From NCBI GenBank assembly GCA_963837665.1, contig CAWIOA010000009.1, positions 285,661 through 349,660 on the forward strand: a stretch of 64,000 bases of DNA, in the 5' to 3' direction. Shown piece by piece: positions 21,139-39,000 of the stretch. The number at the start of each line of letters is the position of its first letter. The first letter of the stretch is position 1. Below the pieces are notes generated by a model. It saw only the letters and a program-made list of their open reading frames with translations. It had not been told where the DNA came from and did no database searches. The stretch comes from an uncultured Acidobacteriaceae bacterium. GTDB lineage: Bacteria > Acidobacteriota > Terriglobia > Terriglobales > Acidobacteriaceae. Made by a program: the position numbers and the translations under genes.

Positions 21139-21562
21139 GGTGCGGTTCAGCCCTGGCAGCGCCGCGGGGAGTGTCGCTGTTGGAAGGGAAGCTTAGCCCG
21201 TCTGGGGGCATGTGTCAAGACGCTGAAAATACATGATTTAGTCTTCAACCGACTGCGCCGAGAGCGGGTGATCGATCTTTTCTGAGCCAGTTTTCTGGAT
21301 TTTCGCGCATGTGTAGATAGTTAGTAAGGTAGCTCGAAGGCTGGTCCGTCCGAGGGGGTTCGGAACGAGAGGAAGATCATGCTCGGACTTCTGGCCTTCG
21401 GACGTCAGCAGCAATTCCGATCGAATGCGGGTGGCCTCGGGGAAGGAACACCCGCCTTCGAGAGGTGACAGATCTCTGTCGCGGAAACGCTCAAAGAGCA
21501 GTAAATTCGCGGTCCGTGAAAGGCCGCGCCGAGAAGCCACTTTCAGCCCAGGAGCAGCAACC

Positions 21563-23182
21563 ATGACCAGGCTCAAAACAAATCGCAGTTTCAATATTGT
21601 GCGGACCATGATCGTTCTGGCAGTCATCGCTTGTGCCGCACTCGTTCACGCGCAAGTTTATACCCAACTGTATAACTTCGATTGCGTGAAGGTCGGGTGC
21701 AATCCGGATCAACCCGGGCTACTTGCCCAGGGCCAGGACGGCGGTCTTTATAGCACGATGCCGATCCAGATTTCCGGCGATGGTACAGTGATCGGCTGCT
21801 CGCCGGCTGGCCTGTGCGACACGATATTCCAATTCACAGACGTGAACTCCAGTCCACAATCAGGACTCAGTCTCGGTTTCGATGGCAACTTTTATGGAAC
21901 GGCCGAAACTGGCGGGGCTGGACGCACTGGCACCGTTTTCAAGGTTTCAGGTGGCGCCATGACAGTGCTTCATACCTTCACGGACGGCACCGATGGTGCA
22001 TATCCTTGGGCTCCTCCCGTTCAGGCCCCGGACGGAAACATTTATGGCGTCACATACAATGGTTCGAACCCAGGGAAAGCGTACAAGATTACGCCGTCCG
22101 GCGTTTTCTCCGTGCTCGCAACCCTGCCTTCCGGAACGCAGGCCCCCTTAATTGTCGGCATCGATGGGAAGCTCTACGGGACAACCCCGTATGGCGGCGA
22201 TTTCAATCGCGGCACCATGTTCCAAATGACCACGAAGGGCATAGTAAAGATCATTCACAGTTTCGGTGCCGATGGCCTTGTGCCTATCGGCCCGGTCATG
22301 CAGGCCGTTGACGGCAAGTTCTACGGCACGACGTCCGGGGGAGGGTCCTTCAGTCAGGGCATCGTCTATCAGGTGACCACGGGAGGCGCCTACAAAGTTC
22401 TGCACAACTTTCAGACCGCGACCGAGGGCACCGGTTCGACCACGGGCCTGGTGCAAGGAAGCGACAAGTTTCTCTATGGCGTGATCGCAGGCGGGGGCGT
22501 TAGCGGTCTCGGATCACTGTACAAGGTCAACACGACCGGGACTACTTTTGCAGTACTTCACAGCTTTGATAGGCTGACTGGGGGCACGCCGTTCTCTACT
22601 CCCACTCTTCACACGAACGGAACGATCTATGGCGTTACGCACACTGGCGGCTCACAGAATTCCACTTATGGCGCGCTTTACAGTTTCGATGCCGGGCTAA
22701 AGCCGTTTGCCTCCCTGGTCGTGATTTGGTCCGGCAAAGTGGGCACGCCGGTGGGCATCCTCGGCCAAGGCTTCTCGAGTGCAACGGGTGTGAAATTCGG
22801 ATCAGGGGCGGGTACCTTCACCGTCGTGAGCGATACCTACATGATCGCAACCGTGGCCGCCGGAGCAACCACCGGTAACGTGACTGTGCTTGAACCGAGC
22901 GGCAACCTGGTTACGCCACAGGTTTTCAAAGTCATTCCCCAGGCGCTGACATTCGCCCCGCCGAGCGGGCCGGTAGGAACGCCGGTTGTGATCACGGGCA
23001 TGAGTCTCACGCAAACAACCAGCGTGACCTTCGGCGGAGTCAAAGCCACCATCTTCACTGTGAACTCCGATACCCAGGTAACTGCGACGGTCCCGACTGG
23101 TGCCAAGACCGGCAAAGCAAAAGTAGTGGTCACGACGAAAGGCGGCAGTGCCACCGCTCCGGGAACTTTCACCGTGAACTGA
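21563..23182 (+). CDS. Secreted repeat protein: GloVer-type repeats plus two C-terminal IPT/TIG-like domains
   Basis: Start at ATG 21563 (MTRLKTNRSF..., signal peptide, AGGAGC RBS). Repeats DGNFYGT/DGKLYGTT..GG....G..F. C-terminal GT.V.I.G.GF...T.V.FGG..AT.FTV.SDT...ATVP.GA.TG. Confidence 0.8.
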   Translation: MTRLKTNRSFNIVRTMIVLAVIACAALVHAQVYTQLYNFDCVKVGCNPDQPGLLAQGQDGGLYSTMPIQISGDGTVIGCSPAGLCDTIFQFTDVNSSPQSGLSLGFDGNFYGTAETGGAGRTGTVFKVSGGAMTVLHTFTDGTDGAYPWAPPVQAPDGNIYGVTYNGSNPGKAYKITPSGVFSVLATLPSGTQAPLIVGIDGKLYGTTPYGGDFNRGTMFQMTTKGIVKIIHSFGADGLVPIGPVMQAVDGKFYGTTSGGGSFSQGIVYQVTTGGAYKVLHNFQTATEGTGSTTGLVQGSDKFLYGVIAGGGVSGLGSLYKVNTTGTTFAVLHSFDRLTGGTPFSTPTLHTNGTIYGVTHTGGSQNSTYGALYSFDAGLKPFASLVVIWSGKVGTPVGILGQGFSSATGVKFGSGAGTFTVVSDTYMIATVAAGATTGNVTVLEPSGNLVTPQVFKVIPQALTFAPPSGPVGTPVVITGMSLTQTTSVTFGGVKATIFTVNSDTQVTATVPTGAKTGKAKVVVTTKGGSATAPGTFTVN

Positions 23183-23702: not shown

Positions 23703-23718
23703 AGTTGTCTAGACAACT
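23703..23718. promoter_or_regulatory. Perfect 16-bp palindrome AGTTGTCTAGACAACT, putative GntR/HutC operator
   Basis: Perfect inverted repeat with the GTnTAnAC core typical of HutC-subfamily operators. It overlaps the predicted transcription start of the regulator gene. A near-identical site lies at 33455-33470. Confidence 0.65.
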
Positions 23719-23728
23719 GGAGGATAGG

Positions 23729-24493
23729 TTGAACCTCCCCGTGCTCGACCGCCGCAGCGCCGTCCCGATTTACTATCAGATTCAGCAGCACCTGCTCGGG
23801 CAGATTCGTTCCGGCAAACTCAAGGCTGGAGCACCCGTCCCATCGGAGCAGGAGATCTCTTCTCGTTTGCGGATCAGTCGCATGACGGCGCGTCAGGCCC
23901 TGAAGTCCTTGTGCGATCTGGGAGTGACTTATAGCCAGAGAGGCAAGGGCACTTTTGTTTCCGGAATCAAACTGGAAAAGAACTTTCGGCAGGTGCTCTC
24001 CTTCAGCCAGGAAACGCAGGCGGGAGGCTCCCGGCCGGCGTCCAAGGTGCTTTCCTTTGAAGTCACCACCGCAGACGATGACGTCACGGAGGCACTCCGC
24101 CTTTCACCCGGGGAGCAAGTGATCAGCTTGCGCCGAGTGCGGATGGCCGGCTCTTCAGCCATGGGAATTGAGTGGAGCCGTATTCCCCAGAAGCTGTGTC
24201 CCGACCTGCTGCAGACGTTCAAACCTGCCGCATCTCTCTACCAGACTCTAATGGAGCACTACGGGATCGAGATTGCGGTAGCTGACGAGGTCGTAGAGGT
24301 GGGCCTGGCAGGGCCTGACGAATTGCGGTTGCTGAAGATCAACAAAGGGAACCCAATCTTTCTTTTTACGCGTACTTCGTACGTTCAGACCGGCCAGCCG
24401 GTCGAATATGTCAAGTCGATTTATCGAGGCGACCGTTACCGGCTGGTGAGCCGTTTGACACCACCGAAACGAAGCATCACAAGGGAAGACTGA
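23729..24493 (+). CDS. GntR-family transcriptional regulator, HutC subfamily (wHTH plus UTRA effector domain)
   Basis: PIYYQIQQHLLGQIRSGKLKAGAPVPSEQEISSRLRISRMTARQALKSLCDLGVTYSQRGKGTFV wHTH, and a UTRA-like C-terminal half. Start set at in-frame TTG 23729 after GGAGGA. The ORF track starts at 23705, inside the operator. Confidence 0.88.
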   Translation: MNLPVLDRRSAVPIYYQIQQHLLGQIRSGKLKAGAPVPSEQEISSRLRISRMTARQALKSLCDLGVTYSQRGKGTFVSGIKLEKNFRQVLSFSQETQAGGSRPASKVLSFEVTTADDDVTEALRLSPGEQVISLRRVRMAGSSAMGIEWSRIPQKLCPDLLQTFKPAASLYQTLMEHYGIEIAVADEVVEVGLAGPDELRLLKINKGNPIFLFTRTSYVQTGQPVEYVKSIYRGDRYRLVSRLTPPKRSITRED

Positions 24494-24535: not shown

Positions 24536-25474
24536 ATGAGGAGAGAAGTTATGCCGCGAAATATATTCATGCTGATTGCCGTTGTGATAGCTGGCTTGGC
24601 GTTGAGCCTTTCGGCTTGGGGCCAGGCAACCACTTCGTTGCAGGGTACGGTCACAGATCCTACCGGCGCTGCGATTTCGGACGCCAAGGTGACCCTGACC
24701 AACGCCGCCACCAACATGGTCCGTGAGGCAACCACCTCGGGCAAAGGGGCGTATGAATTTATCTCGGTGCTGCCGGGGACGTACAAGTTGATGGTGGAGG
24801 CCAAGGGCTTCCGCACCTATGTGGAAACCGGAGTGCAGTTGTTCGTAAACCTGCCCGCAACCGCGAACGCCCGGTTGCAGGTCGGCGCCGTGGCGGAGAC
24901 GTTGGAGGTCACCGGCAAGGCCCCGTCGCTCAACACGACCGAACCCAGCCTCGGGCACACCATGGACTCGAACGAGATCGAGAACCTGCCGCTGCAAGCG
25001 GAGAACATGCCCCTGCTGCTCAGCCTGCAGCCCGGCGTCGTCTACAACGGCGAAGGCATCCTGGAAGACAGTTATGACACGCGCGCCGGATCGGTGAACG
25101 GCGAGCGCAGCGACCAGAACAATATCACGCTGGACGGCGTGAGCATCAACGACGAATTCAACGGCTACGCCTTCACGGGGGTTTTGCCATCCACGCCATA
25201 TTCGGTGGAAGAATTTCGGGTAACCACTTCCAACTATGACGCGACCCAGGGCCGCTCCGCCGGCGCTCAGATCGCCATGGTCACGAAGGGCGGTACTAAC
25301 GCGTTTCACGGTTCGCTGTACGAGTTCAACCGGAACACAGTCGGAGAGGCCAACGACTACTTCCTGAAACAGTCCCAATTGGCTGCTGGCCTGTCGAACG
25401 TGCCGGAACACCTGGTGAGGAATATCTACGGCGGGACCATCGGCGGGCCGATTCTGAAGGACCGCCTGTTCTTT
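24536..25474 (+). CDS. TonB-dependent receptor (carboxypeptidase-regulatory-like N-domain), exon 1, interrupted by group II intron
   Basis: Signal peptide, then GTVTDPTGAAISDAKVTLTN...GAYEFISVLPGTYKL (CarboxypepD_reg) and plug-domain motifs. The reading frame leaves conserved sequence exactly at 25474 (..GGPILKDRLFF), where the intron GTGTG begins. Confidence 0.85.
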
Positions 25475-27353
25475 GTGTGCCGAACATGTTCGACAGCTAG
25501 GGGGTGAAAGTCCCCTGCCCAACCTGGTGGAGGTGAAGGGCTAGAGAAGCGCAAGGGCGTCGTCGCGAGGCGGGGTCTGAAAGAAGCGTGGATCAAAGGC
25601 GCGAGCCGATGGACAAGAACCGGATAACGAGGCCTACGGTGTGGGGCGAGTTGGCAAAGGACAGCGAAGCCCGTGTCCACCAAGCACACTGGTGGTAAAT
25701 CCGGCGGTTGCGCGTCGAAGGCGGTCGAACTTACTTCGGGAGACCCGCCGCATGTCACGGAATCGTGACTGAGGATGGAGCGATTCATCCTGACCGTGGG
25801 GCGGGAGTCAGCAGCGGGCATAGTAGGCCGCGAGGTCGAAGGCCCAAACAGCCAGGAGCGGCGAGTAGGACGCAGGACTCGATGAACGACAAGCGGCAGA
25901 AAAACCAGCTACAGATGGCGCTGGCCTTTACCGGGGAGGGGAGGAGTGAAGCTCCAAGGGCTCCGCGGGAAGGGACCGAATCGTTCACGGCGAAGTGCGA
26001 AACCGAAAGTCCGGCTGGAGAAGAGCAACTGATGGAAGAGGTCTGCGGGCGGGAAAACTGTCAGCGGGCTTTACGACGAGTGAAGGCCAACAAGGGCAGT
26101 CCGGGAATCGACGACATGAAAGTGTCGGAGTTGCCGGGCTACCTGAAGCAGCACTGGCCAGCGATTCGGGAACAACTGTTGAGCGGGACTTATCAACCGC
26201 AACCGGTGCGGCGAGTGGAAATAGCCAAACCGGACGGAGGGATGCGCAAGCTGGGCATTCCGACGGTGTTGGATCGGTTTATTCAGCAGGCGGTGATGCA
26301 GGTTCTGCAAGTCAGATGGGACCCGACGTTTTCCGAACATAGTCACGGGTTTCGTCCGCAACGTTCGGCGCATCAGGCGGTGGCCAAGGCGCAGCAGTAT
26401 ATCGCCGAGGGCAACCGCTGGGTGGTGGATCTCGATCTGGAAAAGTTCTTTGATCGAGTGAATCACGACAAACTGATGGCGGCGATCGCGCGGCGGGTGA
26501 GCGACAAGAGGATGCTCAAGCTGATCCGAGCTTTTCTGGAGTCGGGCGTGATGGAGAACGGGTTGGTGAGTTCGGTGGAGGAAGGAACTCCGCAAGGAGG
26601 ACCTCTGTCACCGCTGCTGTCGAATCTCGTGCTCGACGAACTCGACCGGGAGTTGGAGCGACGTAAGCACCGTTTCGTGCGCTACGCGGATGATTGCAAT
26701 ATCTACGTGGCCAGCGAGCGGGCGGGGAAGCGAGTCATGCAAAGCGTGACCGGTTTCCTGCGGCGGCGACTCAAGCTCAAGGTGAATGAGGCGAAGAGCG
26801 CGGTGGCGCGACCGCAGGAGCGCAAGTTCCTGGGCTTCAGCTTTACCGGCAGGAGAGAACCGAAACGGCGCATCGCGCCTAAGGCTCTCGACCGCTGTAA
26901 GCGAAAAGTACGGGAACTCACGCGACGAACACGGGGCATCAGTCTGGAACAGATGATGAAGCAACTCGCCACCTATTTACGTGGCTGGAAGAGTTACTTC
27001 GGCTTCAGCCAGACGCCCTCGGTGCTGCGTAGGCTGGAGGAATGGATGCGACGCAGGTTGCGATCCGTGATCTGGAAGCAATGGAAGCGCAGCAAGGTGC
27101 GGTATGTGAAGCTGCGCCAGCGGAACATCGGACATGCCCTCGCGGCACAAACCGCCGGCAGTCCCTATGGACCATGGCGTCTGGCCAACAGCCCGGCCCT
27201 GTCGTCTGCGTTTCCGATTGCTTACTTCGACGTGCTCGGTCTTCCTCGCTTGTTGGACGTGCTCTAGCTTAACCGAACTGAACCGCCGTATGCGGACCCG
27301 CATGTACGGTGGTGTGGCAGGGGAGGAGAGGTGACTCTCCCCCCTATGCCGAT
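25475..27353 (+). mobile_element. Group II intron, copy 1 (1879 nt, IIC-like)
   Basis: Limits were defined by where the two copies start and stop being identical. 5' GTGTG, 3' ...GAT. Domain V is at 27283-27312 (ccgccgtatgcg-gacc-cgcatgtacggtgg with a 2-nt bulge), followed by a domain VI hairpin. Encodes an RT/maturase in domain IV. Confidence 0.9.
25882..27267 (+). CDS. Group II intron reverse transcriptase/maturase (no endonuclease domain evident)
   Basis: Start at ATG 25882 (MNDKRQKN). RT motifs GSPGIDDM, RRVEIAKPDGGMRKLGIPTVLDRFIQQA, GTPQGGPLSPLLSN, VRYADDCNIY (YADD). Maturase X region LRGWKSYFGF. No HNH/Zn motif at the C-terminus. Confidence 0.95.
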   Translation: MNDKRQKNQLQMALAFTGEGRSEAPRAPREGTESFTAKCETESPAGEEQLMEEVCGRENCQRALRRVKANKGSPGIDDMKVSELPGYLKQHWPAIREQLLSGTYQPQPVRRVEIAKPDGGMRKLGIPTVLDRFIQQAVMQVLQVRWDPTFSEHSHGFRPQRSAHQAVAKAQQYIAEGNRWVVDLDLEKFFDRVNHDKLMAAIARRVSDKRMLKLIRAFLESGVMENGLVSSVEEGTPQGGPLSPLLSNLVLDELDRELERRKHRFVRYADDCNIYVASERAGKRVMQSVTGFLRRRLKLKVNEAKSAVARPQERKFLGFSFTGRREPKRRIAPKALDRCKRKVRELTRRTRGISLEQMMKQLATYLRGWKSYFGFSQTPSVLRRLEEWMRRRLRSVIWKQWKRSKVRYVKLRQRNIGHALAAQTAGSPYGPWRLANSPALSSAFPIAYFDVLGLPRLLDVL

Positions 27354-30281
27354 TTCTTTAATTACGAAGGCCAACGGCAATCGAAACAAGAGAGCGCGCT
27401 ACGGAATATCCCCACCCCGTCGCTGGCCGATGGAATCCTTCAGTATGAATGCGACGATGCGGGCGAATGTCCCGGCGGCAGCGCCACGGGCATAAGCGGC
27501 AACAGCTACCCAGTCCAGCCCGGCTACTACGCGCTGACTAACACAGACCTCATGCAGATGGATCCGGCTCACATTGGGCCGAACCAGGCGGCGCTTGGTT
27601 ACTTTGGCATATTTCCAAAGGCTAACGACTTCACGGTAGGCAATGGCGTGAACTTCGCCGGGTATCGCTTTGCTGCCCCAACGAAGTTTTCCAATAACTG
27701 GTTCATTGGCCGACTGGACTACGAACTGACTCGAAACGGCAACCATACGCTTTTCCTGCGCGGTGCAGCCCGCAATGATCGCTTTTCCGACACGCCGTTT
27801 CTTCCTGGCACAGCGCCAGAGGATGGGTCGGTGGACGTCAGCAAGGGGTTTGTCTTGGGCTACACGGGTGTTTTCGGACCGCATTGGGTCAACAACGTGC
27901 GCTATGGCCTCACCCACCAGAGCATCGCAACCGCGGGCGATTCCGGCCAACCGTGGATTCTCATGCGGGGGCTAGACGAGCCGAACCTCTATGGGGGTGC
28001 GTTTACCGCGCCGGTGCACAATCTGGTGGACACCGCCTCCTGGAACAAGGGAACGCACAACTTCCAGTTTGGCGCGAACCTGCTGTTCATCCGCCGAAAC
28101 AGCTTCAGTACCTACAACTCTTTCAGCGACGGAATTACGAACTCCGACTACCTCTTCTCCGGCGGCTTTGCCAACAAGAACTCGCCTCTCGATCCCACCT
28201 ACGGCTGCGCTTCTTCCGGCCCCTGCTTTCCGGCAGTTTCCGGCGATTTCAACAACGGCTATGACTTTCCCATGGCGGCGCTGATGGGCATCGTCAGCGA
28301 AGTGGATGCCCGCTACAACTACAAGGTCGCTAACCTGACTACCGCCACCCCGATCGGGCAGGGGCTTCCGATCACGCGCCACTGGGCAACCGACACCTAC
28401 AACCTGTTCTTCCAGGATACATGGCATGCGCGGCCCAACTTAACGGTGACCTACGGCTTGAATTATCAACTGATGATGCCCATCACCGAAACCGCAGGGC
28501 AGCAAGTGACGCCGTCGGTAAATATGGGCGCATGGTTCAACCAGCGCGCCCTTAACGCCAGCAAAGGCATCCCCTCGAACCAGGATGCGCCGATCGCGTT
28601 CGCACCTTCCGGTTCGGTTTATGGCAGGAGCGGTTTGTATTCTGCACAAACCAAGAATTTCGCTCCGCGCGTAGGAGTCTCCTGGACGCCACACTCCAGT
28701 TGGGGATGGCTAAAGGAGATGCTGGGCGAGGACAAGACGGTGGTTCGCGCCGGGGCCGGAATGTACTACGACAACTTCGGTCCGGCGCTGGCGATGAACT
28801 ACGACGCGAACGGTACGTTTGGCCTTTCGAGCGTGCTCTCGAATCCGGCCGCCACGTTGACCCTCAACGACGCTCCTCGCATGACCAGCATGAATGTGAT
28901 CCCAACCACTGACAATTCCGGTAACCCCATCATGCTGCCCCCCCCGCCCTCTACATTCCCGGTTACCTTTCCGCAGGGCGCCGAGGCGATTGCGTCAGGG
29001 ATTGACCAATCTATAAAGACTCCCTACTCCTACGCTCTGGATTTGTCGATCCAGCGGCAGTTACCGGGACGGATGACTCTGGACGTAGCATACGTCGGGC
29101 ACTTCGGTCATAGATTGCTCGCTTTGGACGATGTCGCCGCCCCGCTCAACCTGAAAGACCCGAAATCGGGAATCGACTACTTCACCGCAGCAAAGCAAAT
29201 GTCGAAGCTGTGGCGCGCCGGCACTCCCGAGAGCAGCATCACGCCTGCGGTGGTCGGGCCGACGGCACAATACTGGCAGAACATACTGTCGACACCGTCC
29301 AATGGGCAATACTCGCTTTGCTCGACCGGAGGGACGACACCCAACCTGTTGATCGCTACCTACGACGCTTTCAGCCCTGGCTGCGGCAGCCTCTACAACG
29401 AGACCACCGCACCCTGGATCATGGACTTGTACGGTATCCCGAGCACACCTGTAACGGGGCCGAACAGCTTCTACAACAGCCAGTACTCGTCACTATGGGA
29501 CTGGCGCTCGATCGGCTACTCGAACTACAACGCCCTGCAGGTTGGTCTGCACCGGCAGATGTCCCATGGAGTCCTGTTCGGGCTTAACTACACTTACAGC
29601 AAGTCTAACGACATCGCGTCGCAGGCAGAACGCGGCATCCACTATCTTACGGACAGCATCATTAATCCATGGTCCCCCAATCAAATGTACGGTCCCAGCG
29701 ATTTCGATTTGCGGCACCAGATCAACGGCTTCTGGGTGGTGGAGTTGCCCTTTGGCCGAGGTAAACGAATCGGTGGGGACGTCAGCAAACTGGCCGACGC
29801 CCTGATCGGCGGCTGGCAACTTGGCGGGACCGCGCGCGTCACCTCGGGATACACAACCAGCGTGTTCATGGGCTACGTCTGGCCGACCAACTGGGATGAA
29901 ATGGGATGGGCGGATTTGACCGGCAAACCCATCAAGACGGGGACGACGATGGTCAATGGAACGCCCAATATATTCAAGAATCCCACCCAGGCGAGCGCGG
30001 GTTTCGATTATGCCTATCCGGGCGAAAGCGGCTCCCGTAATCCTATTCGCGGCGATGGTTACTTAGGCGTGGACATGAACCTGGCGAAGACCTGGAAGAT
30101 GCCCTTTGCGGAAAATCAGAAACTGCAATTGCGCTGGAGCGTTTTCAACGTGACCAATACCGCTCGATTCGACGCCTACTCGATGCAGGACGAGGTGGAT
30201 TCCGGGAGCACGTTCGGGAACTACACCCAAACGCTGACTCACCCACGTACGATGGAGATCGCTTTGACTTATCAATTCTGA
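27354..30281 (+). CDS. TonB-dependent receptor, exon 2
   Basis: In frame with exon 1 after removal of 25475-27353. Begins FFNYEGQRQ and ends with beta-barrel terminal ...IALTYQF. The joined product is 1288 aa. Confidence 0.85.
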   Translation, partial: FFNYEGQRQSKQESALRNIPTPSLADGILQYECDDAGECPGGSATGISGNSYPVQPGYYALTNTDLMQMDPAHIGPNQAALGYFGIFPKANDFTVGNGVNFAGYRFAAPTKFSNNWFIGRLDYELTRNGNHTLFLRGAARNDRFSDTPFLPGTAPEDGSVDVSKGFVLGYTGVFGPHWVNNVRYGLTHQSIATAGDSGQPWILMRGLDEPNLYGGAFTAPVHNLVDTASWNKGTHNFQFGANLLFIRRNSFSTYNSFSDGITNSDYLFSGGFANKNSPLDPTYGCASSGPCFPAVSGDFNNGYDFPMAALMGIVSEVDARYNYKVANLTTATPIGQGLPITRHWATDTYNLFFQDTWHARPNLTVTYGLNYQLMMPITETAGQQVTPSVNMGAWFNQRALNASKGIPSNQDAPIAFAPSGSVYGRSGLYSAQTKNFAPRVGVSWTPHSSWGWLKEMLGEDKTVVRAGAGMYYDNFGPALAMNYDANGTFGLSSVLSNPAATLTLNDAPRMTSMNVIPTTDNSGNPIMLPPPPSTFPVTFPQGAEAIASGIDQSIKTPYSYALDLSIQRQLPGRMTLDVAYVGHFGHRLLALDDVAAPLNLKDPKSGIDYFTAAKQMSKLWRAGTPESSITPAVVGPTAQYWQNILSTPSNGQYSLCSTGGTTPNLLIATYDAFSPGCGSLYNETTAPWIMDLYGIPSTPVTGPNSFYNSQYSSLWDWRSIGYSNYNALQVGLHRQMSHGVLFGLNYTYSKSNDIASQAERGIHYLTDSIINPWSPNQMYGPSDFDLRHQINGFWVVELPFGRGKRIGGDVSKLADALIGGWQLGGTARVTSGYTTSVFMGYVWPTNWDEMGWADLTGKPIKTGTTMVNGTPNIFKNPTQASAGFDYAYPGESGSRNPIRGDGYLGVDMNLAKTWKMPFAENQKLQLRWSVFNVTNTARFDAYSMQDEVDSGSTFGNYTQTLTHPRTMEIALTYQF

Positions 30282-30412: not shown

Positions 30413-31345
30413 GTGAAGACCGGAAAACACAAGGCGGCGCAGGACGTTCGCCGTCTGCGCACCGAGCAAGCGCACGACGGGGCCACGAATCTTGATCAGA
30501 AGTCAGCGATCGAGATCGCTCGCCTGATCAACGCTGAAGACGCGACGGTAGCTGCCGCGGTACGAAGCGCGTTGCCGCAGATCGCGCGCGCCATTGACCT
30601 GGTCGCTGCCGCCCTTCGCCAGGGCGGCCGCCTGATTTACGTTGGCGCCGGCACCAGCGGCCGCATCGGCGCCCTGGATGCTTCTGAATGCGCGCCCACC
30701 TTTGATCTTTCACCACGCACCGTTCAGGCCATCATCGCGGGAGGTCCGAAAGCCCTGGCGACGTCCGCTGAATCTCGTGAAGATGACACCAAACTGGGAC
30801 GCGCCGAGATGGCCCGACGGAAGCCCGGCAAGAGGGATGTCGTTATCGGCATCGCCTCCAGCGGACGCACTCCTTTCACCGTAGCCGCCATCGAATACGC
30901 GCGCCGCCGCGGCGCGAAGACCATCGCCCTCACCTGCAACCCTGACTCGCCGCTCGAGCGCGCGGCTGGCTTTGCCATCGTCACCGACGTTGGTCCTGAG
31001 ATTCTGGCTGGATCGTCACGCATGAAAGCCGGCACGGCACACAAGATGGTGCTGAACATAATCTCTACCGGCGCGATGACGCGGCTGGGCTATGTCTATG
31101 GCAATCTGATGGTCAAGGTATCGCCGAGGAATGAGAAACTGGTGCAGCGCGTGGTTGGAATCTTGGAGCGCGCCACGGGAGCCGACCATGAAACTGCCCG
31201 CCGTACGTTGGAGGCTTCGGGCAATCGCACACCAGTCGCCGTCGTAATGCTGGCTGCCGGGGTCTCCCGCGCCAAGGCTGCTGCCGCCCTGAAGAAATCC
31301 CGTGGTCACGTGCGCCAAGCTATCGCGATCGCAAGCCCGAAGTGA
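30413..31345 (+). CDS. murQ: N-acetylmuramic acid 6-phosphate etherase
   Basis: SIS-domain protein. LRTEQ......LD.KS..EI..LIN.ED..V, GRLIYVGAGTSGRIG.LDASECAPTF, GIASSGRTP, SRMKAGTA.K..LN motifs. GTG start with an AAAGGAG RBS. Confidence 0.9.
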   Translation: MKTGKHKAAQDVRRLRTEQAHDGATNLDQKSAIEIARLINAEDATVAAAVRSALPQIARAIDLVAAALRQGGRLIYVGAGTSGRIGALDASECAPTFDLSPRTVQAIIAGGPKALATSAESREDDTKLGRAEMARRKPGKRDVVIGIASSGRTPFTVAAIEYARRRGAKTIALTCNPDSPLERAAGFAIVTDVGPEILAGSSRMKAGTAHKMVLNIISTGAMTRLGYVYGNLMVKVSPRNEKLVQRVVGILERATGADHETARRTLEASGNRTPVAVVMLAAGVSRAKAAAALKKSRGHVRQAIAIASPK

Positions 31346-31382: not shown

Positions 31383-32504
31383 TTAGAGCGGTTGTACTCC
31401 CAGTCCCGGTCCCTCGGGCAGAATAAGCTTGCCCTTTTGCACGGTAACGCCGCGGTAGGGATCGTTCGCGATCAAAATGTTTCCATCCAGATCCGCGTAG
31501 TCCACGAGCGGCGAAAGATGCGCTGCCGCCGTGACACTGACCGAACTGGCAATCATGCAGCCGATCATGGTTTTCATCCCCAGCGACTTGGCCACATAAA
31601 TCATGCGCAGAGCTTCCTGGATGCCTCCACACTTGTCGAGTTTGACGTTGATTCCGTCATAGGCATCGACGAGTTTGGGGATGGCGCGCGCATTCACGGC
31701 TGCTTCATCGGCGATAATCGGCAAATGCACGCGGCTTCTCACCCATCGTGTTTCTTCGAGCATATCCGCGGGCATCGGTTGCTCGATGAACTCCACGCCT
31801 TGCGATTCGAGCCAGTTGATCTTGCGGACGGCCTCTTCTTTGTCTTTCCACCCTTCGTTGGCATCTACGCGCAGTGGCTTTTTGGTTACGCTGCGTACTG
31901 CCTCGATGGTGGGTTCATCGGTGGTTAGACCTACTTTGATCTTGAGGACCGGATACGCCTCCGCTTCGAGGACTTTCTGCCGCGTGATTTCGGGCGTATC
32001 GATTCCGATGGAGAATGTGGTAACCGGTGCGTCGGCCGCGTCGAGACCGAGAAAGCGGTAGAGGGGGACGTTCAGTTTCTTGCCGACCCAATCCATGAGG
32101 GCGATATCGAGAGCGGCTTTGGCGGCGAATTGCCCTTCGACTCGCGCGCGGACCTGGGCCATGAGCTTTTCGAACTGCCATGGGTTCGCGCTCGCCAGGA
32201 AAGGAAGAATCGACTCAATCGCTTTTCGACCGTCCTCTGCGTTTTCGTGGTAACGCACGATGGGCGCGCCTTCACCGAATCCAGTCACGCCGCCACAGTT
32301 AAGGCGGACGTGGATGGTGTCACGGTAGGCGCTGGACGACATCGTCGTCGTCCAGGTGTGGCGAAGGTTGAGGCGCACGACCCTGGCCTCCCACTTGCAG
32401 TCCGCCGGAGACTCTTCCGCGAAGGCTGGCAACGATGCGAAATTCGCGGCCATGCAACCCACGCCAAGAGTTCCGGTAGCCTGGAGCCACTTTCGCCGGT
32501 TCAT
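31383..32504 (-). CDS. Enolase-superfamily dipeptide epimerase (L-Ala-D/L-Glu epimerase-like) with twin-arginine signal peptide
   Basis: Start at ATG 32504 (MNRRKWLQATGTLGVGCMAANFASLPAFA). MR/MLE-type motifs KIKVG, RVDANEGW, EQP, DE...... and KLDKCGG. The ATG overlaps the stop of the upstream NlpC/P60 gene (ATGA). Confidence 0.78.
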   Translation of the reverse strand: MNRRKWLQATGTLGVGCMAANFASLPAFAEESPADCKWEARVVRLNLRHTWTTTMSSSAYRDTIHVRLNCGGVTGFGEGAPIVRYHENAEDGRKAIESILPFLASANPWQFEKLMAQVRARVEGQFAAKAALDIALMDWVGKKLNVPLYRFLGLDAADAPVTTFSIGIDTPEITRQKVLEAEAYPVLKIKVGLTTDEPTIEAVRSVTKKPLRVDANEGWKDKEEAVRKINWLESQGVEFIEQPMPADMLEETRWVRSRVHLPIIADEAAVNARAIPKLVDAYDGINVKLDKCGGIQEALRMIYVAKSLGMKTMIGCMIASSVSVTAAAHLSPLVDYADLDGNILIANDPYRGVTVQKGKLILPEGPGLGVQPL

Positions 32505-33397
32505 TTGACCCTCTTGCAGGCGACCAGCAGGCGCGTCCACGGATCGTCATCCAGGCGGCTGATCTGCGTCACCGGATGGCTGTTGGTGGTGGTGTGGATG
32601 AATTGTCCTTCTCCGATGTAGAGGCCGGTGTGCGTGATCTTGTCGGCGGCCTGTCCAAAAAAGAGCAGGTCGCCGGGCCGGAGATCCTTACGATCGACCG
32701 CCACAACTCCGTCCCATGCCGCCTGAAGATCCGCGTCACGAGGCATGTTGAAGCCACGGCTGCGCACCAGCATCTGGGTGAACCCCGAGCAGTCGTACCC
32801 GTAACTGGAGCGTCCGCCCCACAGATAAGGCAGGCCGAGGAACCGTTTAGCCAGGTCAATCGACTGGGCTATGGTCAGGGGTTGCGGATCGCGATTGACA
32901 TCTCCGTTTTGGATCCACGCGGTGCGCTGGTCGGGCAAACGCACCTGCAGCCATCCAGCGTCGTCTCCTTTCCCCTCGGCCACGACCTCCAGGCGCGTTT
33001 CAAAAGGGACGGTGAGGACAGGCTTGCGCGAGGTAACGTCGGTTACGCCATACAGGTTGGCAAACAAGGCCTCGACCTGCACCACCGATCCTGACTTGGC
33101 ATAGGCTCCGGATTCGCCCAGCTTGCGGAGAGTATCACCGGCCATCCAGCCCGAGTACTGGTCAGCGGTACGGACTCTTGCCCAATTGTCCCGGACTTCG
33201 AGCGTAACCACATTGCTGCCGATAATGGCTTGTGAGACTACATCAGAGTTTTCGGTTGCAGCGGAATACATGTTGGCAACCGGAACCACCACGACACGGT
33301 CCGGGACGGCGGTCTGCCCAGAGGAGGCGTTCCTGAGAAATAAGGCTAATGTGATTGCGAAGAATACCTGTATGCAACGATTGTTTCGGTAGCGCAT
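32501..33397 (-). CDS. NlpC/P60 peptidase with N-terminal SH3b-like domains (YkfC-like gamma-D-glutamyl-L-diamino-acid endopeptidase)
   Basis: GLPYLWGGRSSYGYDCSGFTQMLV (catalytic Cys), GDLLFF, ITHTGLYIG.GQFIHT (His). Preceded by two SH3b-like segments and a signal peptide. The start is 33397 or 33436. Confidence 0.85.
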   Translation of the reverse strand: MRYRNNRCIQVFFAITLALFLRNASSGQTAVPDRVVVVPVANMYSAATENSDVVSQAIIGSNVVTLEVRDNWARVRTADQYSGWMAGDTLRKLGESGAYAKSGSVVQVEALFANLYGVTDVTSRKPVLTVPFETRLEVVAEGKGDDAGWLQVRLPDQRTAWIQNGDVNRDPQPLTIAQSIDLAKRFLGLPYLWGGRSSYGYDCSGFTQMLVRSRGFNMPRDADLQAAWDGVVAVDRKDLRPGDLLFFGQAADKITHTGLYIGEGQFIHTTTNSHPVTQISRLDDDPWTRLLVACKRVK

Positions 33398-33454
33398 GAT
33401 GAATACCCCGAAGAGCCTTCTTGACAAACAGAGCATCTTAGCACTGGACAGACT

Positions 33455-33470: not shown

Positions 33471-33657
33471 GATGAATGAGTTTAACCTCTCCCGGGTAGA
33501 GAGCACGGGCAGGGCGCAGCCAGCGACATGCAGGGCCAGTGCAGAAGTGTGGACCACAAGAATCATGATCCAGAGGGTAACTTGAGCACTAACACTTAGG
33601 TAACGTCGTCATTCAGACCGGACGCAACTAATCTTGCGGCTGAGGGTTTCTATCGAC

Positions 33658-34038
33658 ATGAACAATAAATTCACCAACTCGCTGTTAATCCTGGCAGTCG
33701 GGGCCCTGATGATCGCCGGTTCCGCCGCTGCTCAAACCTCCACCAACACTTCGGGCGCGGGTCCTGGCGTGGTCGATCCCGGCCATCCGCGGGTCAATGA
33801 AGTCAATCGCCGCGAAGGCAACCAGCAGCAGCGCATTGGCAACGGCATTAAGAGCGGGAAATTGAGCTCGCAGCAGACGACGAACCTGGAAAAGCGCGAG
33901 ACCAGCGTGCAGAACCGTGAACAGAAAGACATGGCGGCGCACAACGGACATCTCACCAAGTCCGAGCAGAAGGGAATCAATCGCCAGCAGAACCGGATCA
34001 GCAAGAGTATCTACAAAGACAAGCACCCCAAGCAGTAA
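33658..34038 (+). CDS. Hypothetical small secreted protein, Gln/Asn/Lys-rich
   Basis: 126 aa from ATG 33658. Signal peptide MNNKFTNSLLILAVGALMIAGSAAAQ, followed by a good terminator. No family recognised. Confidence 0.5.
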   Translation: MNNKFTNSLLILAVGALMIAGSAAAQTSTNTSGAGPGVVDPGHPRVNEVNRREGNQQQRIGNGIKSGKLSSQQTTNLEKRETSVQNREQKDMAAHNGHLTKSEQKGINRQQNRISKSIYKDKHPKQ

Positions 34039-34073: not shown

Positions 34074-34101
34074 GCCGCAGCGTTGCTGCGGCGTTTTCTT
34101 T
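34074..34101 (+). terminator. Rho-independent terminator (also the insertion site of intron copy 2)
   Basis: gccgcagc-gtt-gctgcggc (8-bp stem) followed by gttttcttt. The intron begins at the next base. Confidence 0.75.
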
Positions 34102-35980
34102 GTGTGCCGAACATGTTCGACAGCTAGGGGGTGAAAGTCCCCTGCCCAACCTGGTGGAGGTGAAGGGCTAGAGAAGCGCAAGGGCGTCGTCGCGAGGCGG
34201 GGTCTGAAAGAAGCGTGGATCAAAGGCGCGAGCCGATGGACAAGAACCGGATAACGAGGCCTACGGTGTGGGGCGAGTTGGCAAAGGACAGCGAAGCCCG
34301 TGTCCACCAAGCACACTGGTGGTAAATCCGGCGGTTGCGCGTCGAAGGCGGTCGAACTTACTTCGGGAGACCCGCCGCATGTCACGGAATCGTGACTGAG
34401 GATGGAGCGATTCATCCTGACCGTGGGGCGGGAGTCAGCAGCGGGCATAGTAGGCCGCGAGGTCGAAGGCCCAAACAGCCAGGAGCGGCGAGTAGGACGC
34501 AGGACTCGATGAACGACAAGCGGCAGAAAAACCAGCTACAGATGGCGCTGGCCTTTACCGGGGAGGGGAGGAGTGAAGCTCCAAGGGCTCCGCGGGAAGG
34601 GACCGAATCGTTCACGGCGAAGTGCGAAACCGAAAGTCCGGCTGGAGAAGAGCAACTGATGGAAGAGGTCTGCGGGCGGGAAAACTGTCAGCGGGCTTTA
34701 CGACGAGTGAAGGCCAACAAGGGCAGTCCGGGAATCGACGACATGAAAGTGTCGGAGTTGCCGGGCTACCTGAAGCAGCACTGGCCAGCGATTCGGGAAC
34801 AACTGTTGAGCGGGACTTATCAACCGCAACCGGTGCGGCGAGTGGAAATAGCCAAACCGGACGGAGGGATGCGCAAGCTGGGCATTCCGACGGTGTTGGA
34901 TCGGTTTATTCAGCAGGCGGTGATGCAGGTTCTGCAAGTCAGATGGGACCCGACGTTTTCCGAACATAGTCACGGGTTTCGTCCGCAACGTTCGGCGCAT
35001 CAGGCGGTGGCCAAGGCGCAGCAGTATATCGCCGAGGGCAACCGCTGGGTGGTGGATCTCGATCTGGAAAAGTTCTTTGATCGAGTGAATCACGACAAAC
35101 TGATGGCGGCGATCGCGCGGCGGGTGAGCGACAAGAGGATGCTCAAGCTGATCCGAGCTTTTCTGGAGTCGGGCGTGATGGAGAACGGGTTGGTGAGTTC
35201 GGTGGAGGAAGGAACTCCGCAAGGAGGACCTCTGTCACCGCTGCTGTCGAATCTCGTGCTCGACGAACTCGACCGGGAGTTGGAGCGACGTAAGCACCGT
35301 TTCGTGCGCTACGCGGATGATTGCAATATCTACGTGGCCAGCGAGCGGGCGGGGAAGCGAGTCATGCAAAGCGTGACCGGTTTCCTGCGGCGGCGACTCA
35401 AGCTCAAGGTGAATGAGGCGAAGAGCGCGGTGGCGCGACCGCAGGAGCGCAAGTTCCTGGGCTTCAGCTTTACCGGCAGGAGAGAACCGAAACGGCGCAT
35501 CGCGCCTAAGGCTCTCGACCGCTGTAAGCGAAAAGTACGGGAACTCACGCGACGAACACGGGGCATCAGTCTGGAACAGATGATGAAGCAACTCGCCACC
35601 TATTTACGTGGCTGGAAGAGTTACTTCGGCTTCAGCCAGACGCCCTCGGTGCTGCGTAGGCTGGAGGAATGGATGCGACGCAGGTTGCGATCCGTGATCT
35701 GGAAGCAATGGAAGCGCAGCAAGGTGCGGTATGTGAAGCTGCGCCAGCGGAACATCGGACATGCCCTCGCGGCACAAACCGCCGGCAGTCCCTATGGACC
35801 ATGGCGTCTGGCCAACAGCCCGGCCCTGTCGTCTGCGTTTCCGATTGCTTACTTCGACGTGCTCGGTCTTCCTCGCTTGTTGGACGTGCTCTAGCTTAAC
35901 CGAACTGAACCGCCGTATGCGGACCCGCATGTACGGTGGTGTGGCAGGGGAGGAGAGGTGACTCTCCCCCCTATGCCGAT
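34102..35980 (+). mobile_element. Group II intron, copy 2 (1879 nt)
   Basis: Every ORF-track translation inside it is identical to copy 1, with a constant offset of 8627 nt. Same GTGTG...GAT ends. Domain V is at 35910-35939. Confidence 0.9.
34509..35894 (+). CDS. Group II intron reverse transcriptase/maturase (identical to 25882-27267)
   Basis: Identical 519-aa ORF-track translation. Functional start inferred at the MNDKRQKN methionine. Confidence 0.95.
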   Translation: MNDKRQKNQLQMALAFTGEGRSEAPRAPREGTESFTAKCETESPAGEEQLMEEVCGRENCQRALRRVKANKGSPGIDDMKVSELPGYLKQHWPAIREQLLSGTYQPQPVRRVEIAKPDGGMRKLGIPTVLDRFIQQAVMQVLQVRWDPTFSEHSHGFRPQRSAHQAVAKAQQYIAEGNRWVVDLDLEKFFDRVNHDKLMAAIARRVSDKRMLKLIRAFLESGVMENGLVSSVEEGTPQGGPLSPLLSNLVLDELDRELERRKHRFVRYADDCNIYVASERAGKRVMQSVTGFLRRRLKLKVNEAKSAVARPQERKFLGFSFTGRREPKRRIAPKALDRCKRKVRELTRRTRGISLEQMMKQLATYLRGWKSYFGFSQTPSVLRRLEEWMRRRLRSVIWKQWKRSKVRYVKLRQRNIGHALAAQTAGSPYGPWRLANSPALSSAFPIAYFDVLGLPRLLDVL

Positions 35981-36074
35981 TGTCCGGGCGCTTGGGGTGC
36001 GAATAAGACAAAGGAAAACGGCCGGGAGAGACTCCCAGCCGTTTCTTGGGGAACTTCTACTACAGAGCTATTTC

Positions 36075-39000
36075 TTACCAGTTTATTTTTAGCGCGAACT
36101 GGAACTGGCGCGGGTCGTAGGCGGCGGTGGCCTGGCCGGCGTTGCAGGTTGTACCGCAGAGCGGGCTTACGGCGGCTACGTTGTACACGTTGGCGATGTT
36201 GAACATATCAGCGATGAGGTCCATGTTGAAGCGTTCGCTGAAGTAGACGCGCTTGGCGATGCGCAGGTCGTTAAAGACTGTCCATGGGGAGAGGCCTGCG
36301 TTGCGGCCGAGGTTGCCGTCGAGAAGCCTGAGAGCGTTGGGTTGAAGGAGCTGTGCAAACGAGATGTCGGCAAAGCACGGCTCCTGAAAGAAGCCCGTGC
36401 GCGAGTATTTCGAAGGCAGCGTCGGGTAGCCACAAGCATTGGTGGGGGTTCCGGACGGCACAATATTGGGACGACCCGTTTCCGAAGAAAACTGAAAGTT
36501 GTCGCCACTGCCGGTGACGATGTTGAATGGCCGCCCGGAACTTAATTCGACGAGGGGAGCGAAAGTCCAATTGCTGAAGAATTTGCTGGCGAAACCGCTG
36601 CCGCTGAGTTTGCCCGACTGGTAGACACCGCTGAAGACGAAGCGATGACGCTGATCAAAGAGCGACGTGGAACGATCGGCGCTCGGGAAGTAGCTGTCCT
36701 GCGGGGTAAGGGTGGCCTGCAGGTCGGTGGAATCGTCGATCGCGTGCGACCAGGTGTAGGAGGCGAGGAATTCATAGTGATTGCTGAAGCGCTTGCGGAG
36801 ATTGGCGCTCAGCCCGTGATAGACCGAACTGCCGTTGGATTCGTTGGCATCCATGTCGCTGAAAGGGATCAAAACACAGCCGCCGGAAGAGCCAAACGCC
36901 AGGGCAGGATCGCAGGCGCTGCCGTTCGGGCCCAGACCAATTCCATCCTGTTTGGCGAGCGCCTGGGCATCTCCGAGACACGGGCCACCCGCAAGCGAGG
37001 GATTCAGACCCGAGCGGCGGAAGAAACTGAGCATAGAGGCAGGCGCGAAGAGGCCGGCTGGCTCGATTCCTCCAATCGCGGTGGGGCAAATGGCAACCGA
37101 GAGCGGGTCAGAGGGAATTGGAACCGGAATGCCCAAAGACTGAGCGTACTGTGCTGCGGCAACAGCGGCATAGAAGTTCTTCACCAGCAAGTCTCCCCGA
37201 GGAGAATTGGCATTGATCGGCCGGTTCAGGTGATGGCCGCCGTTAAAGTTGTAAGCGAGATTCACCGCGAAACCATTGCCGAGGTCTTTCTCGATACTAA
37301 AGTTGATTTGCTGAGAATAGGCGTAGACGAAGCCCTTGCCCTCCGGATACCCGAACGGCTGGGAGATGAGCGGGAAGGCGCCCAAGGGACTCGACCCGGT
37401 CAGGTAGCTCTGGTTAAGAAAAGGAGAATTGGGCAAGCAAGGGTCGAAGCGCTGCGGGTTGGGTCCCGCGCCGCATGCGGCTCCCGGAGCCGTATCGTTC
37501 TGATAGCCAAGAGCGGCGGCGAATCCGGTGCCAGCTGACCCGGGAAGCAGACAATTCGGGGCTCCCTGAATGCCCTGAAACATATTGGTGGCGTTCAGAT
37601 TGAGCGGAGTGGCGTTTAGGGGATTTCCGTCGCAGGGACTGGAGCCGAAGAAGAGCAATTGGCCGGTCTTGGAGGCGTCGGCGGCATCGCCCAGAAAGTA
37701 CAGACCGAGCAGAGGGTGATCGTAGAAAATGCCGTAGGAGGCGCGGACAACCGTCTTACCGTCGCCTTTCGGATTCCAGGCAATTCCGATGCGAGGCTGA
37801 ATGTTGTTCTTATCCGTCTGGATGCCCTTCTGTATTCCCAGGGCGCCATAGCCGGGCAGACCCAGGCCAGTGGGTGGCGCGAAGGTTGGGGGAAACTCTA
37901 CGTCGTAGCGAGCACCCAGGTTCAGTGTGACGTTTGACCGAACGCGCCAGGAATCCTGCCAATACAGTCCCAGGGGCTTATTGGAGAATGAGTCCTTCGG
38001 GTTGCCGACGCCTTGCACTATGTACGAAGGGATTCCTGCGCCATACGCCTGTACTGAATTAGCTGCGGGGAGACCCGCGGCCAGGCTCTCGGGGCTGAAG
38101 TTGTACACGCCGCCGTAGTTAACAGTAAACGTTGCCTGCAAAGGCAGATAGTTAAAGTCCACGCCGAACTTGGTATTGTGGCGGCCCATGGTCCAGGAGA
38201 AGTTGTCGGTGAACTGGTAGCGGCTTTCGACGCGCTGGATGAAAGAGTATGGCTCGCGCCCGATGTAGGCATAACCAATGATGTTCACAGCCGGATCGGC
38301 TCCGGCGGCGATGGACTTGTTGTAGAAATATGCCAAACCCCGGCGGGCATACTGGAAGCGAAACTCATTGACCTTGTTGTTGCCGAGGGTCCAGGTGTCT
38401 TGAAAGACTCCGGCCGCGTCGCGGTAGGTTTGCTCCGAGGTGCGGGAGTAGGCGTTCTGGCCGAAGGGCTGGTCCTGGCCGTTGACTTCGATGCCGGTCA
38501 CGGTACTGGGACTGACGTTGGCGCGCAATGTCAGGCGGTTGCGGCTATTGATATTGTGGTCGATGCGCAGCGAGTAGAGGCTGGTGCCTTCAAACACCGG
38601 AAAATTTCCACTTTGCGAACCGAGACTCTGAAATGACGCAGGTAAACCCCCGCAGATCAGAGCAGGTGTTATCAAATTGCACGAGGTCGGGAACTGTTGT
38701 GGTCCAGATCCTCCTGGAGCGAACGGGAGCGCCGCAAACGCCTGTTGGTTTCCGGTTAACGCGACCCATGACGAGGCGCCCAGCAACCAGGTGTAGGCCT
38801 CGACTGGCAGAGGCGCGGGACCCGCTTGCGCGAATGGAGCCAGGAATGCAGCCTGCTCAGCCGTAGCCGGCATGGTAAATGTGCCCGGCGGTAAAAGGGG
38901 GTTGAAGATTCCAGTGGCATCAAAACTCTGCAGCCCGTAGTACCCCAGGTTTGTCGCCGGGGCAATGCTGGAGAATCCCGTCTCATGCCGCCGTGTCGTC

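Follow-up and report, generated by a model that had tools for sequence, protein, structure and literature searches.

The stretch of DNA analyzed here, referred to below as the window, comprises 64,000 nucleotides (nt) of contig CAWIOA010000009.1 (positions 285,661 to 349,660; GenBank assembly GCA_963837665.1) from an uncultured Acidobacteriaceae bacterium. It carries a TonB-dependent-receptor-like gene (below, the receptor gene) that is interrupted, in sense orientation, by a group II intron (copy A), and a second copy of the same intron (copy B) that lies between convergent genes (Table 1). The open reading frames (ORFs) at 24536..25507 (+) and 27309..30281 (+) are the halves of one receptor gene, with the first intron base (25475) falling 939 nt (313 codons) past the ATG of the first ORF and the first base of the resumed coding sequence (27354) falling 45 nt (15 codons) past the start of the second.

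Table 1. Features of the interrupted receptor locus, of the second intron copy and of the genes around them, in window coordinates (IIC, class C of the group II introns).
Feature	Coordinates	Strand	Details and basis
GntR/UTRA-family regulator	23705..24493	+	42 nt upstream of the receptor; Pfam GntR and UTRA; 72% identical to its counterpart on contig L001
Receptor exon 1	24536..25474	+	Codons 1-313; signal-peptide-like N-terminus, CarboxypepD_reg, plug-like region, start of the barrel
Imperfect exon 1 stem-loop	25442..25466	+	GGCGGGCC / GATTCTGAA / GGACCGCC; stem of 8 positions, of which one is a G-A mismatch; loop of 9 nt
Intron-binding site 1 (IBS1)	25471..25474	+	CTTT, the final four nt of exon 1; pairs with AAAG of exon-binding site 1 (EBS1); the same sequence precedes copy B
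Group IIC intron copy A	25475..27353	+	1879 nt, GTGTG...GAT, sense within the receptor coding sequence; Rfam, identity with copy B, shared borders
Position of the IIC-specific bulge motif	25576..25586	+	TCTGAAAGAAG; Rfam RF02001 alignment
EBS1	25656..25659	+	AAAG in the loop of hairpin 25650-25666; covariation
Exon-binding site 3 (EBS3)	25698	+	A; pairs with T27354 (intron-binding site 3, IBS3)
Reverse transcriptase/maturase	25879..27267	+	462 amino acids (aa) from MNDKRQ, YADD present; RVT_1 and GIIM
Domain V	27283..27312	+	30 nt: CCGCCGUAU-GCG-GACC-CGC-AU-GUACGGUGG; CGC at positions 2-4 replacing AGC; 3-bp distal stem
Domain VI	27315..27351	+	Bulged A 27346, eighth nt from the 3' end, putative branch point
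Receptor exon 2	27354..30281	+	Codons 314-1288 and stop; first base T is IBS3; protein end ...LTYQF
murQ (N-acetylmuramic acid 6-phosphate etherase)	30413..31345	+	131 nt downstream of the receptor; TIGR00274 349 bits (cut-off 302), PRK05441
YkfB-like L-Ala-D/L-Glu epimerase-type (MR_MLE) and YkfC-like NlpC/P60 endopeptidase with SH3 domains	31383-32540, 32501-33436	-	Divergent
Small gene	33634..34038	+	N-terminus hydrophobic and resembling a signal peptide; translation probably from ATG 33659; copy B targets its terminator
Terminator-like hairpin	34074..34101	+	GCCGCAGC-GTT-GCTGCGGC then GTTTTCTTT; ends in IBS1 CTTT; terminator scan
Group IIC intron copy B	34102..35980	+	1879/1879 identical to copy A, 8.6 kb away; between convergent genes

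The borders of the intron are fixed independently of the reading frame. At the Rfam gathering score, RF02001 matches 25559-25730 over its whole length (121 bits, model positions 1-170 of 170) and covers, together with RF01998 at 25770-25844, the domain I-IV core, while RF00029 (domains V/VI) matches 27281-27353 and ends exactly on the 3' border. Base-for-base identity between copies A and B spans 25469-27354, that is, the intron itself plus a shared TTCTTT on the 5' side and a shared T on the 3' side. Approximately 60 related introns from other genomes all begin with GTGTGCCGA and all end in CGAT, and their flanks are unrelated. The hallmarks of group II introns are all present, namely a 5' GTGTG, a 3' GAT, the conserved core, domains V and VI, and a bulged A.

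Deletion of 25475-27353 (1879 nt) yields a 3867-nt ORF of 1288 aa whose sole stop codon is terminal. The junction of the predicted spliced protein reads ...GGPILKDRLFF/FFNYEGQRQ... (here and below, the slash in a sequence marks the point of insertion), the ligated RNA junction would be CTGTTCTTT/TTCTTTAAT, and the predicted junction-spanning segment of the receptor is ...LKDRLFFFFNYEGQR.... Without splicing, the frame continues for 10 further codons (VCRTCSTARG) into the intron and meets a stop at 25505-25507. The joined protein gives a single continuous match to the Pfam outer-membrane beta-barrel family PF25183 (residues 249-1280, profile positions 1-837 of 838), carries CarboxypepD_reg (PF13620) at residues 34-115, and has an aromatic C-terminus (...LTYQF). 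The same domain architecture is found in a paralogue at 36075-39902. Pfam Plug (PF07715) had no match at E <= 0.001 in the spliced receptor or in the paralogue; residues 130-245 of the former are plug-like by eye. NCBI lists homologues of the receptor under the names TonB-dependent receptor and carboxypeptidase regulatory-like domain protein, and homologue names assign the host to the Terriglobia (Acidobacteriota). The first-pass annotation of this DNA had proposed that a sense-strand group II intron splits the receptor gene, which the Rfam matches, the joined ORF and the single PF25183 match bear out, and had pointed to the paralogue as a bearer of the restored motif, where we indeed find the matching GGPIKKDKTYYYFAYETTR on the minus strand.

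Its further proposal, that excision restores this conserved motif exactly, agrees with the in-frame 3867-nt ORF and with the orthologues of the receptor. A protein search against 5.8 billion proteins returned thousands of receptor relatives, and the best 119 full-length sequences (60-85% identity) were aligned. All 119 are gapless across the junction, with the pattern [KR][LFAT]FFF[FVILA]NYEG. The closest uninterrupted orthologue (P0001, 85% identity) comes from contig L001, where its gene follows an orthologue (72% identity) of the GntR/UTRA regulator, and L001 therefore represents the same locus without the intron. A comparison with uninterrupted relatives, suggested earlier as a check, thus returned this motif across the junction in the aligned orthologues. 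The sole truncated match (P0005) is the 990-aa exon-2 ORF of this very sequence, which begins at an internal GTG (27309). The protein collection contains no exact counterpart of the intron protein or of the exon-1 ORF. One other protein, P0121, was considered as a split gene after a search with the intron-derived leader of the exon-2 ORF, and was rejected as a piece of a fragmented but uninterrupted receptor. On contig L082 (831-3771; GCA_003156785.1), the orthologous receptor is present as four or five short ORFs (82, 228, 231, and 440 aa) with FFFFNYEG intact; judging from these reading frames, it is a frameshifted pseudogene or a low-quality assembly and not an intron case.

The protein encoded by the intron has Pfam RVT_1 and GIIM only, without an endonuclease (HNH) domain, and ends approximately 40 aa past the maturase domain. 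It passes the NCBIfam equivalog TIGR04416 (group II reverse transcriptase/maturase) with 430 bits against a cut-off of 300. Its best relative of solved structure is the GsI-IIC reverse transcriptase (6ar1, IIC; 477 bits, E 5e-142), and the others are the Eubacterium rectale IIC maturase (7uim; 350 bits), LtrA (IIA; 158 bits), and a IIB maturase (115 bits). The proteins of related introns align with it from residue 1. Without its ORF, the ribozyme measures at most 490 nt, of which 404 nt precede the protein start (25475-25878) and 86 nt follow the stop (27268-27353). Introns of group IIC are distinguished by a CGC triad, a distal domain V stem that is 2 bp shorter, and an AGGAA bulge motif (PMC1702495, Toor et al. 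2006). The bulge motif of the present intron is AAGAA, one base off AGGAA; among 42 relatives, 30 have AAGAA and 9 have AGGAA, and the RF02001 consensus is GAAGGAAG. The predicted fold of domains V and VI has a z-score of -5.2.

Exon recognition was assessed by aligning domain I of the 42 related introns and comparing the complementarity of each to its own 5' exon with that obtained for shuffled exon pairings. The AAAG(G) loop (25656-25660) changes in step with the final 3-4 bases of the exon, forming on average 2.95 of 4 Watson-Crick pairs where the null is 2.29, a score that none of 100 shuffles equalled; this covariation includes TTAT with ATA, GTT with AAC, CGA with TCG, and CATG with CATG. 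The sequence TCTGAAAGAAG, which contains AAAGAA, was also considered as EBS1, and was rejected because it is conserved whatever the exon, the covarying loop at 25656 being EBS1. The EBS3 position covaries too: in 28 of 33 introns it matches the base that opens the 3' exon, A going with T and G with C. No intron window surpassed the shuffles for exon positions -5 to -8 or -7 to -12 in the 42 introns, from which we conclude that there is no IBS2; positions -11 to -16 showed marginal complementarity (6 of 100 shuffles as good). The closest kinship of the protein with IIC proteins, the CGC triad, the short domain V, the EBS1-IBS1 and EBS3-IBS3 pairings, and the lack of an IBS2 together place the intron in class C (group IIC), of which, by these sequence characters, it is a typical and intact member.

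The canonical site of class C introns lies behind an intrinsic terminator (PMC4424553, PMC7306698, PMC10190682), and as a group these introns avoid coding sequence (PMC7306698). Copy B occupies a canonical site of this kind. Its target stem (34074-34092) is a perfect, GC-rich helix of 8 bp with a 3-nt loop, located 36 nt past the stop codon of the co-oriented small gene, and the insertion point follows 9 nt after the hairpin, within the tail GTTTTCTTT. The upstream sequence has a minimum free energy (MFE) of -17.6 kcal/mol, with approximately 1% of control CTTT/T sites folding as well, and the stem has a pair probability of about 1.0. Of about 76 related intron copies in other Acidobacteriota, nearly all likewise follow strong hairpins. 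Among 47 distinct sites occupied by closer relatives of the intron, nearly all have perfect stems of 8-15 bp, loops of 3-6 nt, and a T-rich spacer of 4-9 nt, with a median upstream MFE of -20.9 kcal/mol. The small gene whose terminator was targeted matched no NCBIfam family. Behind the paralogous receptor, a strong 14-bp terminator-like hairpin (36015-36045, minus strand) lies about 35 nt from the 3' end of copy B, which is thereby wedged between two convergent terminators.

Copy A sits at a site with identical IBS1 and IBS3 (CTTT / T) and an atypical upstream structure. The stem ends 8 nt before the insertion point, with no T-run beyond TGTTCTTT. The upstream MFE is -12.5 kcal/mol, and 20% of 108 control CTTT/T sites in the window fold as well; the pair probability of the stem is 0.01-0.19 in a longer RNA context, and only 3 of the 47 sites of close relatives have weaker upstream folding. 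The possibility that the receptor site is a good mimic of a terminator was rejected, given a folding energy no better than chance and a stem that rarely forms in RNA context. Moreover, copy A is the only one of 59 tested sites to lie deep in a long conserved ORF, with 327 open codons upstream and >833 downstream; the other sites mostly have <100. The earlier remark that coding-sequence insertions are uncommon holds, and does so more strongly for class C than for group II introns at large (PMC7306698, PMC4424553). The empty site in L001 reads GAACCGTTTGTTCTTC/TTC versus GGACCGCCTGTTCTTT/TTC in the receptor, so that L001 has CTTC, with a mismatch at the critical position -1, and an even weaker stem, and is thus not a target. 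The choice of synonymous codons in this strain created the intron target; a synonymous codon (TTT vs TTC) combined with a chance stem can make a conserved receptor motif a site of insertion.

Other sites in the family are of several kinds. On L030 (2496-4477; 75% protein identity), an intron appears to lie in sense orientation within an EAL-HDOD signalling gene, at approximately codon 25 and again with a weak, mispaired hairpin before it, and the joined product would read ...GQRFF/ARQPIFD...; the family may thus include another insertion into coding sequence, subject to the unsettled start codon of the gene. L077 and L073 were likewise considered as coding insertions and rejected, since the frame in L077 is arginine-rich nonsense and the intron in L073 stands at the end of a PIN-domain gene. 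A distant subgroup (L048-L079; for example L060 2495-2519, L065, L072, L077, and L079), with 64-68% protein identity to the intron protein and with hosts among Acidobacteriota and Alphaproteobacteria, including a Bradyrhizobium isolate, invariably follows a conserved motif some 25 nt long, CGTCCGCCGC-N3-8-GCGGCTTCGTT, whose stem has only 5-6 bp, and is itself followed by C (often CAA). This motif looks like a dedicated repeat or attC-like target, not like ordinary terminators. Related introns also occur head-to-tail or nested (...GCCGAT/GTGTGCC...), as on L012 (4466/4467) and L019 (4463/4464), and four 5' ends and four 3' ends of related introns are found within 7.4 kb on L036. Where one copy adjoins the end of domain VI of another, the hairpin of that domain may itself act as the stem-loop that is targeted; IBS1 matches poorly at such sites.

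Copies A and B show 0 differences in 1879 nt, and copy A in all likelihood arose by a very recent ectopic retrotransposition into coding sequence, which is our main explanation for the locus as a whole. The first-pass annotation, correct on the sense intron, the exact restoration, and the rarity of such a position, had missed the intron class, the identical second copy, and the ectopic transposition. A ribonucleoprotein (RNP) from one copy would have reverse-spliced into transiently single-stranded DNA at the receptor site, with reverse transcription then primed at a replication fork; we propose fork priming because the intron protein lacks an endonuclease domain, and this route has been described for endonuclease-less introns (PMC4424553). 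The intron would now be transcribed within the receptor pre-mRNA, from which the maturase would be translated and would promote lariat splicing at 25474/25475 and 27353/27354, using EBS1 (25656-25659), EBS3 (25698), domain V (27283-27312), and the branch A (27346). Exact ligation of the exons would give the 1288-aa receptor ORF, while unspliced RNA would give a 323-aa N-terminal fragment and a barrel fragment without a signal peptide.

Splicing at the receptor site is plausible because the same IBS1 and IBS3 elements supported reverse splicing there. The predicted EBS1-IBS1 pairing comprises 4 bp and a G-U pair, and maturases are known to switch IIC introns to efficient lariat splicing (PMC7161350). 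We tentatively expect, at slightly less than even chances, that some accurate splicing occurs with reduced receptor output, the reduction following from the weakness of the 5'-exon stem-loop, which IIC introns use to hold the 5' exon. As part of the same main explanation, we take the allele to be, very probably, an insertion of recent date, neutral to deleterious, in a receptor gene that has many paralogues, and not an evolved regulatory device.

The age of the insertion also bears on what the exons can tell. Since the two copies are identical, the insertion is too young for decay to have appeared, and the intactness of the exons is consequently uninformative on maintained function. The earlier claim that the gene is not a dead pseudogene was drawn from those intact exons and is not supported by them. 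Persistence of the insertion is not seen across related lineages, with 119/119 orthologues uninterrupted, and none of the 80 closest intron loci found in 185,579 species-representative genomes is inserted at the same receptor site. A metagenome scan with one degenerate pattern and exact matching gave no match to the 5' junction of this strain, either empty or filled, and a second exact-matching scan gave none to the intron 3' end followed by the FFNYEG codons; scans of this type need exact matches and say little about diverged cases.

Several points weigh against the main explanation or parts of it. Gene conversion between the copies could also account for their identity, and transposition may have run from B to A, in the reverse direction, or from some third copy that lies beyond the window. 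Fork priming is borrowed from other endonuclease-less introns, and the GC skew of the window is weakly positive; we considered deriving the orientation of replication from this skew and rejected it as too weak to use. In longer RNA contexts, exon 1 is predicted to end in a 19-nt hairpin of GAAGGAC with GUUCUUU (25456-25474), which would occlude IBS1 in competition with its pairing to EBS1. Receptor output could also be normal, as deletion of the terminator had no effect on the splicing of GBSi1 (as cited in PMC1702495), or it could be zero. The latter outcome corresponds to a null allele, in which the first splicing step or hydrolysis might still take place, the 5' exon would not be held, and the exons would stay unligated, making the receptor a brand-new pseudogene tolerated thanks to many paralogous receptors. 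The closest precedent comes from the Bacillus halodurans intron B.h.I1, for which exon ligation in vitro went undetected, even by reverse transcription PCR, both with the copy at a mispaired stem, B.h.I1(X), whose IBS1 has 3 bp, and with a mutant that lacks the stem (PMC1702495). The low pairing probability of the receptor stem, the hairpin competing for IBS1, the presence of at least one paralogue within 6 kb and of thousands of homologues in the lineage, and the silence of the exons after so recent an insertion are all in keeping with a killed receptor. However, IBS1 in the receptor pairs over 4 bp plus G-U rather than 3 bp, the B.h.I1 data describe protein-free self-splicing whereas splicing with a maturase is efficient in IIC introns (PMC7161350), the GBSi1 result points the other way, and the site sufficed for reverse splicing through the same recognition elements. 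We accordingly hold a null allele to be a serious possibility, though one we lean against.

At the opposite end stands a maintained intron-containing gene, in which efficient splicing would couple the receptor, and perhaps a muropeptide-salvage locus, to the ribozyme and the maturase in a stable or regulatory arrangement. The exact in-frame restoration of a conserved motif, a full set of catalytic parts with an intact maturase bearing YADD, and the sense orientation in an apparently transcribed locus would all suit this reading. Nonetheless, we consider it improbable: two identical copies do not speak for persistence, the closest intron loci, the metagenome junction scans, and every aligned orthologue lack the insertion, class C introns avoid coding sequence (PMC7306698), the weak stem-loop speaks against efficiency, and the linkage to murQ is not conserved. 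Efficient splicing from the receptor gene is in itself unlikely, and we likewise doubt that a terminator-seeking class C intron has here become a true coding-sequence intron, efficient without a proper 5'-exon stem-loop and coupling a muropeptide-salvage receptor to its maturase and ribozyme. If coding-sequence splicing did prove efficient, the locus would represent a natural first step from a selfish, behind-terminator element to a gene-resident intron. An assembly artefact, finally, would remove the intron from the receptor gene altogether by a mis-join at the identical 1.9-kb repeats. Identical repeats are classic points of mis-assembly, the assembly appears to be of metagenome type, and one 418-kb contig is the only known source of the exon-2 ORF. 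A repeat-mediated mis-join would, however, pair unrelated flanks, whereas the flanks of copy A belong to one gene and meet at the same codon with no base lost or gained, and those of copy B are coherent as well, the upstream flank holding a terminator and the downstream flank a convergent gene that has one of its own; mis-assembly is therefore very unlikely, to the point that we give it hardly any weight beside an ectopic retrotransposition.

Class C introns are the most abundant group II introns of bacteria, a success attributed to their hiding behind terminators and avoiding coding sequence, and they have often been claimed to be the most primitive class of group II introns, on weak phylogenetic support. 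One proliferating IIC family that targets hairpins includes GsI-IIC of Geobacillus stearothermophilus, whose reverse transcriptase is the TGIRT enzyme (6ar1). Residues 51-458 of the present intron protein align with residues 3-410 of that enzyme. Unlike GsI-IIC, which belongs to Firmicutes, the present intron resides in Acidobacteriota, and its protein is approximately 50 aa longer at the N-terminus, a segment that is conserved in relatives. The resemblance to B.h.I1 extends to a small ribozyme, the CGC triad, the short domain V, and an IBS1 of 3-4 bp, as well as to near-identical genomic copies (here two in the 64-kb window), most of which stand behind terminators and one of which, in B.h.I1, stands at a mispaired stem-loop (PMC1702495). 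B.h.I1(X) is nevertheless still intergenic, whereas copy A interrupts a conserved gene of 1288 codons after codon 313, in frame and on the sense strand, so that splicing matters to the host. In the RNP of the E. rectale IIC intron, both protein and RNA hold on to a DNA stem of roughly 12 bp, beyond which come a spacer, IBS1, and IBS3 (7uim; PMC10190682). Copy B and the relatives fit this recognition logic; the target of copy A is unlike the E. rectale target, with a stem of 8 positions, a G-A mismatch, and a 9-nt loop.

Among introns residing in genes, Ll.LtrB (IIA), found in the relaxase gene ltrB of Lactococcus lactis, likewise has a sense orientation in a protein-coding gene and must be spliced for the host protein to be made, and it lowers host gene expression (PMC6003770). 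Ll.LtrB differs in its endonuclease-containing protein, its long, sequence-specific homing site, its location in a mobile-element gene, and its stable pairing with that gene, whereas copy A belongs to the terminator-seeking IIC introns and lies in a cellular gene of the chromosome. The effect of splicing on a cellular gene is shared with the rare introns of housekeeping genes, such as those of the cyanobacterial CL/ML lineage (PMC4424553) and the groEL stop-codon introns (PMC12584367); these, however, belong to the CL, ML, or IIB1 lineages with evolved site specificity, while class C is a lineage without homing sites in genes (PMC4424553, PMC12584367). The IIC-attC introns of integrons form a sub-lineage of class C whose target, an imperfect inverted repeat, is not a terminator (PMC4424553). 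Copy A resembles them in this respect and, unlike them, has no attC or integron context; the CGTCCGCCGC...GCGGCTTCGTT flank of the distant subgroup described above might be a special target comparable to that of IIC-attC introns.

The kind of element described here is thus already known and its position is unusual, and we make no claim of a first case; beyond position and annotation, the locus is an ordinary mobile-element insertion, and the mechanism is not new. What the locus offers is a natural experiment, in which two sites 8.6 kb apart, one canonical and one not, carry an identical intron. The pair suits questions on the weight of the stem-loop in IIC splicing in vivo and on the host cost of landing within a gene. 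It also matters for annotation, since the public record holds the truncated 990-aa ORF (P0005), which should read as part of one intron-interrupted gene.

The interrupted receptor lies in a peptidoglycan-recycling neighborhood, which suggests, as a reasonable guess from gene content, import of muropeptides or of N-acetylmuramic acid. The terminator scan found no terminator-like site between the receptor and murQ. At the orthologous locus in L001, murQ is not the downstream neighbor of the receptor. The first-pass annotation had extended dependence on the ribozyme to murQ; this is speculation, as translation of murQ has a start of its own, 131 nt past the receptor gene, and the linkage is absent in L001, and polarity on murQ through about 4.8 kb of untranslated RNA is conceivable. 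Farther upstream in the window, tandem repeats occupy 11802-12713 and 13148-14086 (three 306-nt units, 76-84% identical, and about six 150-nt units, respectively), and the ORF at 21425-23182, near these arrays, encodes a GloVer "choice-of-anchor tandem repeat" protein (TIGR03803, 5 repeats). A tRNA gene, unrelated to the intron, is located at 11300-11373 (Rfam RF00005, 70.7 bits).

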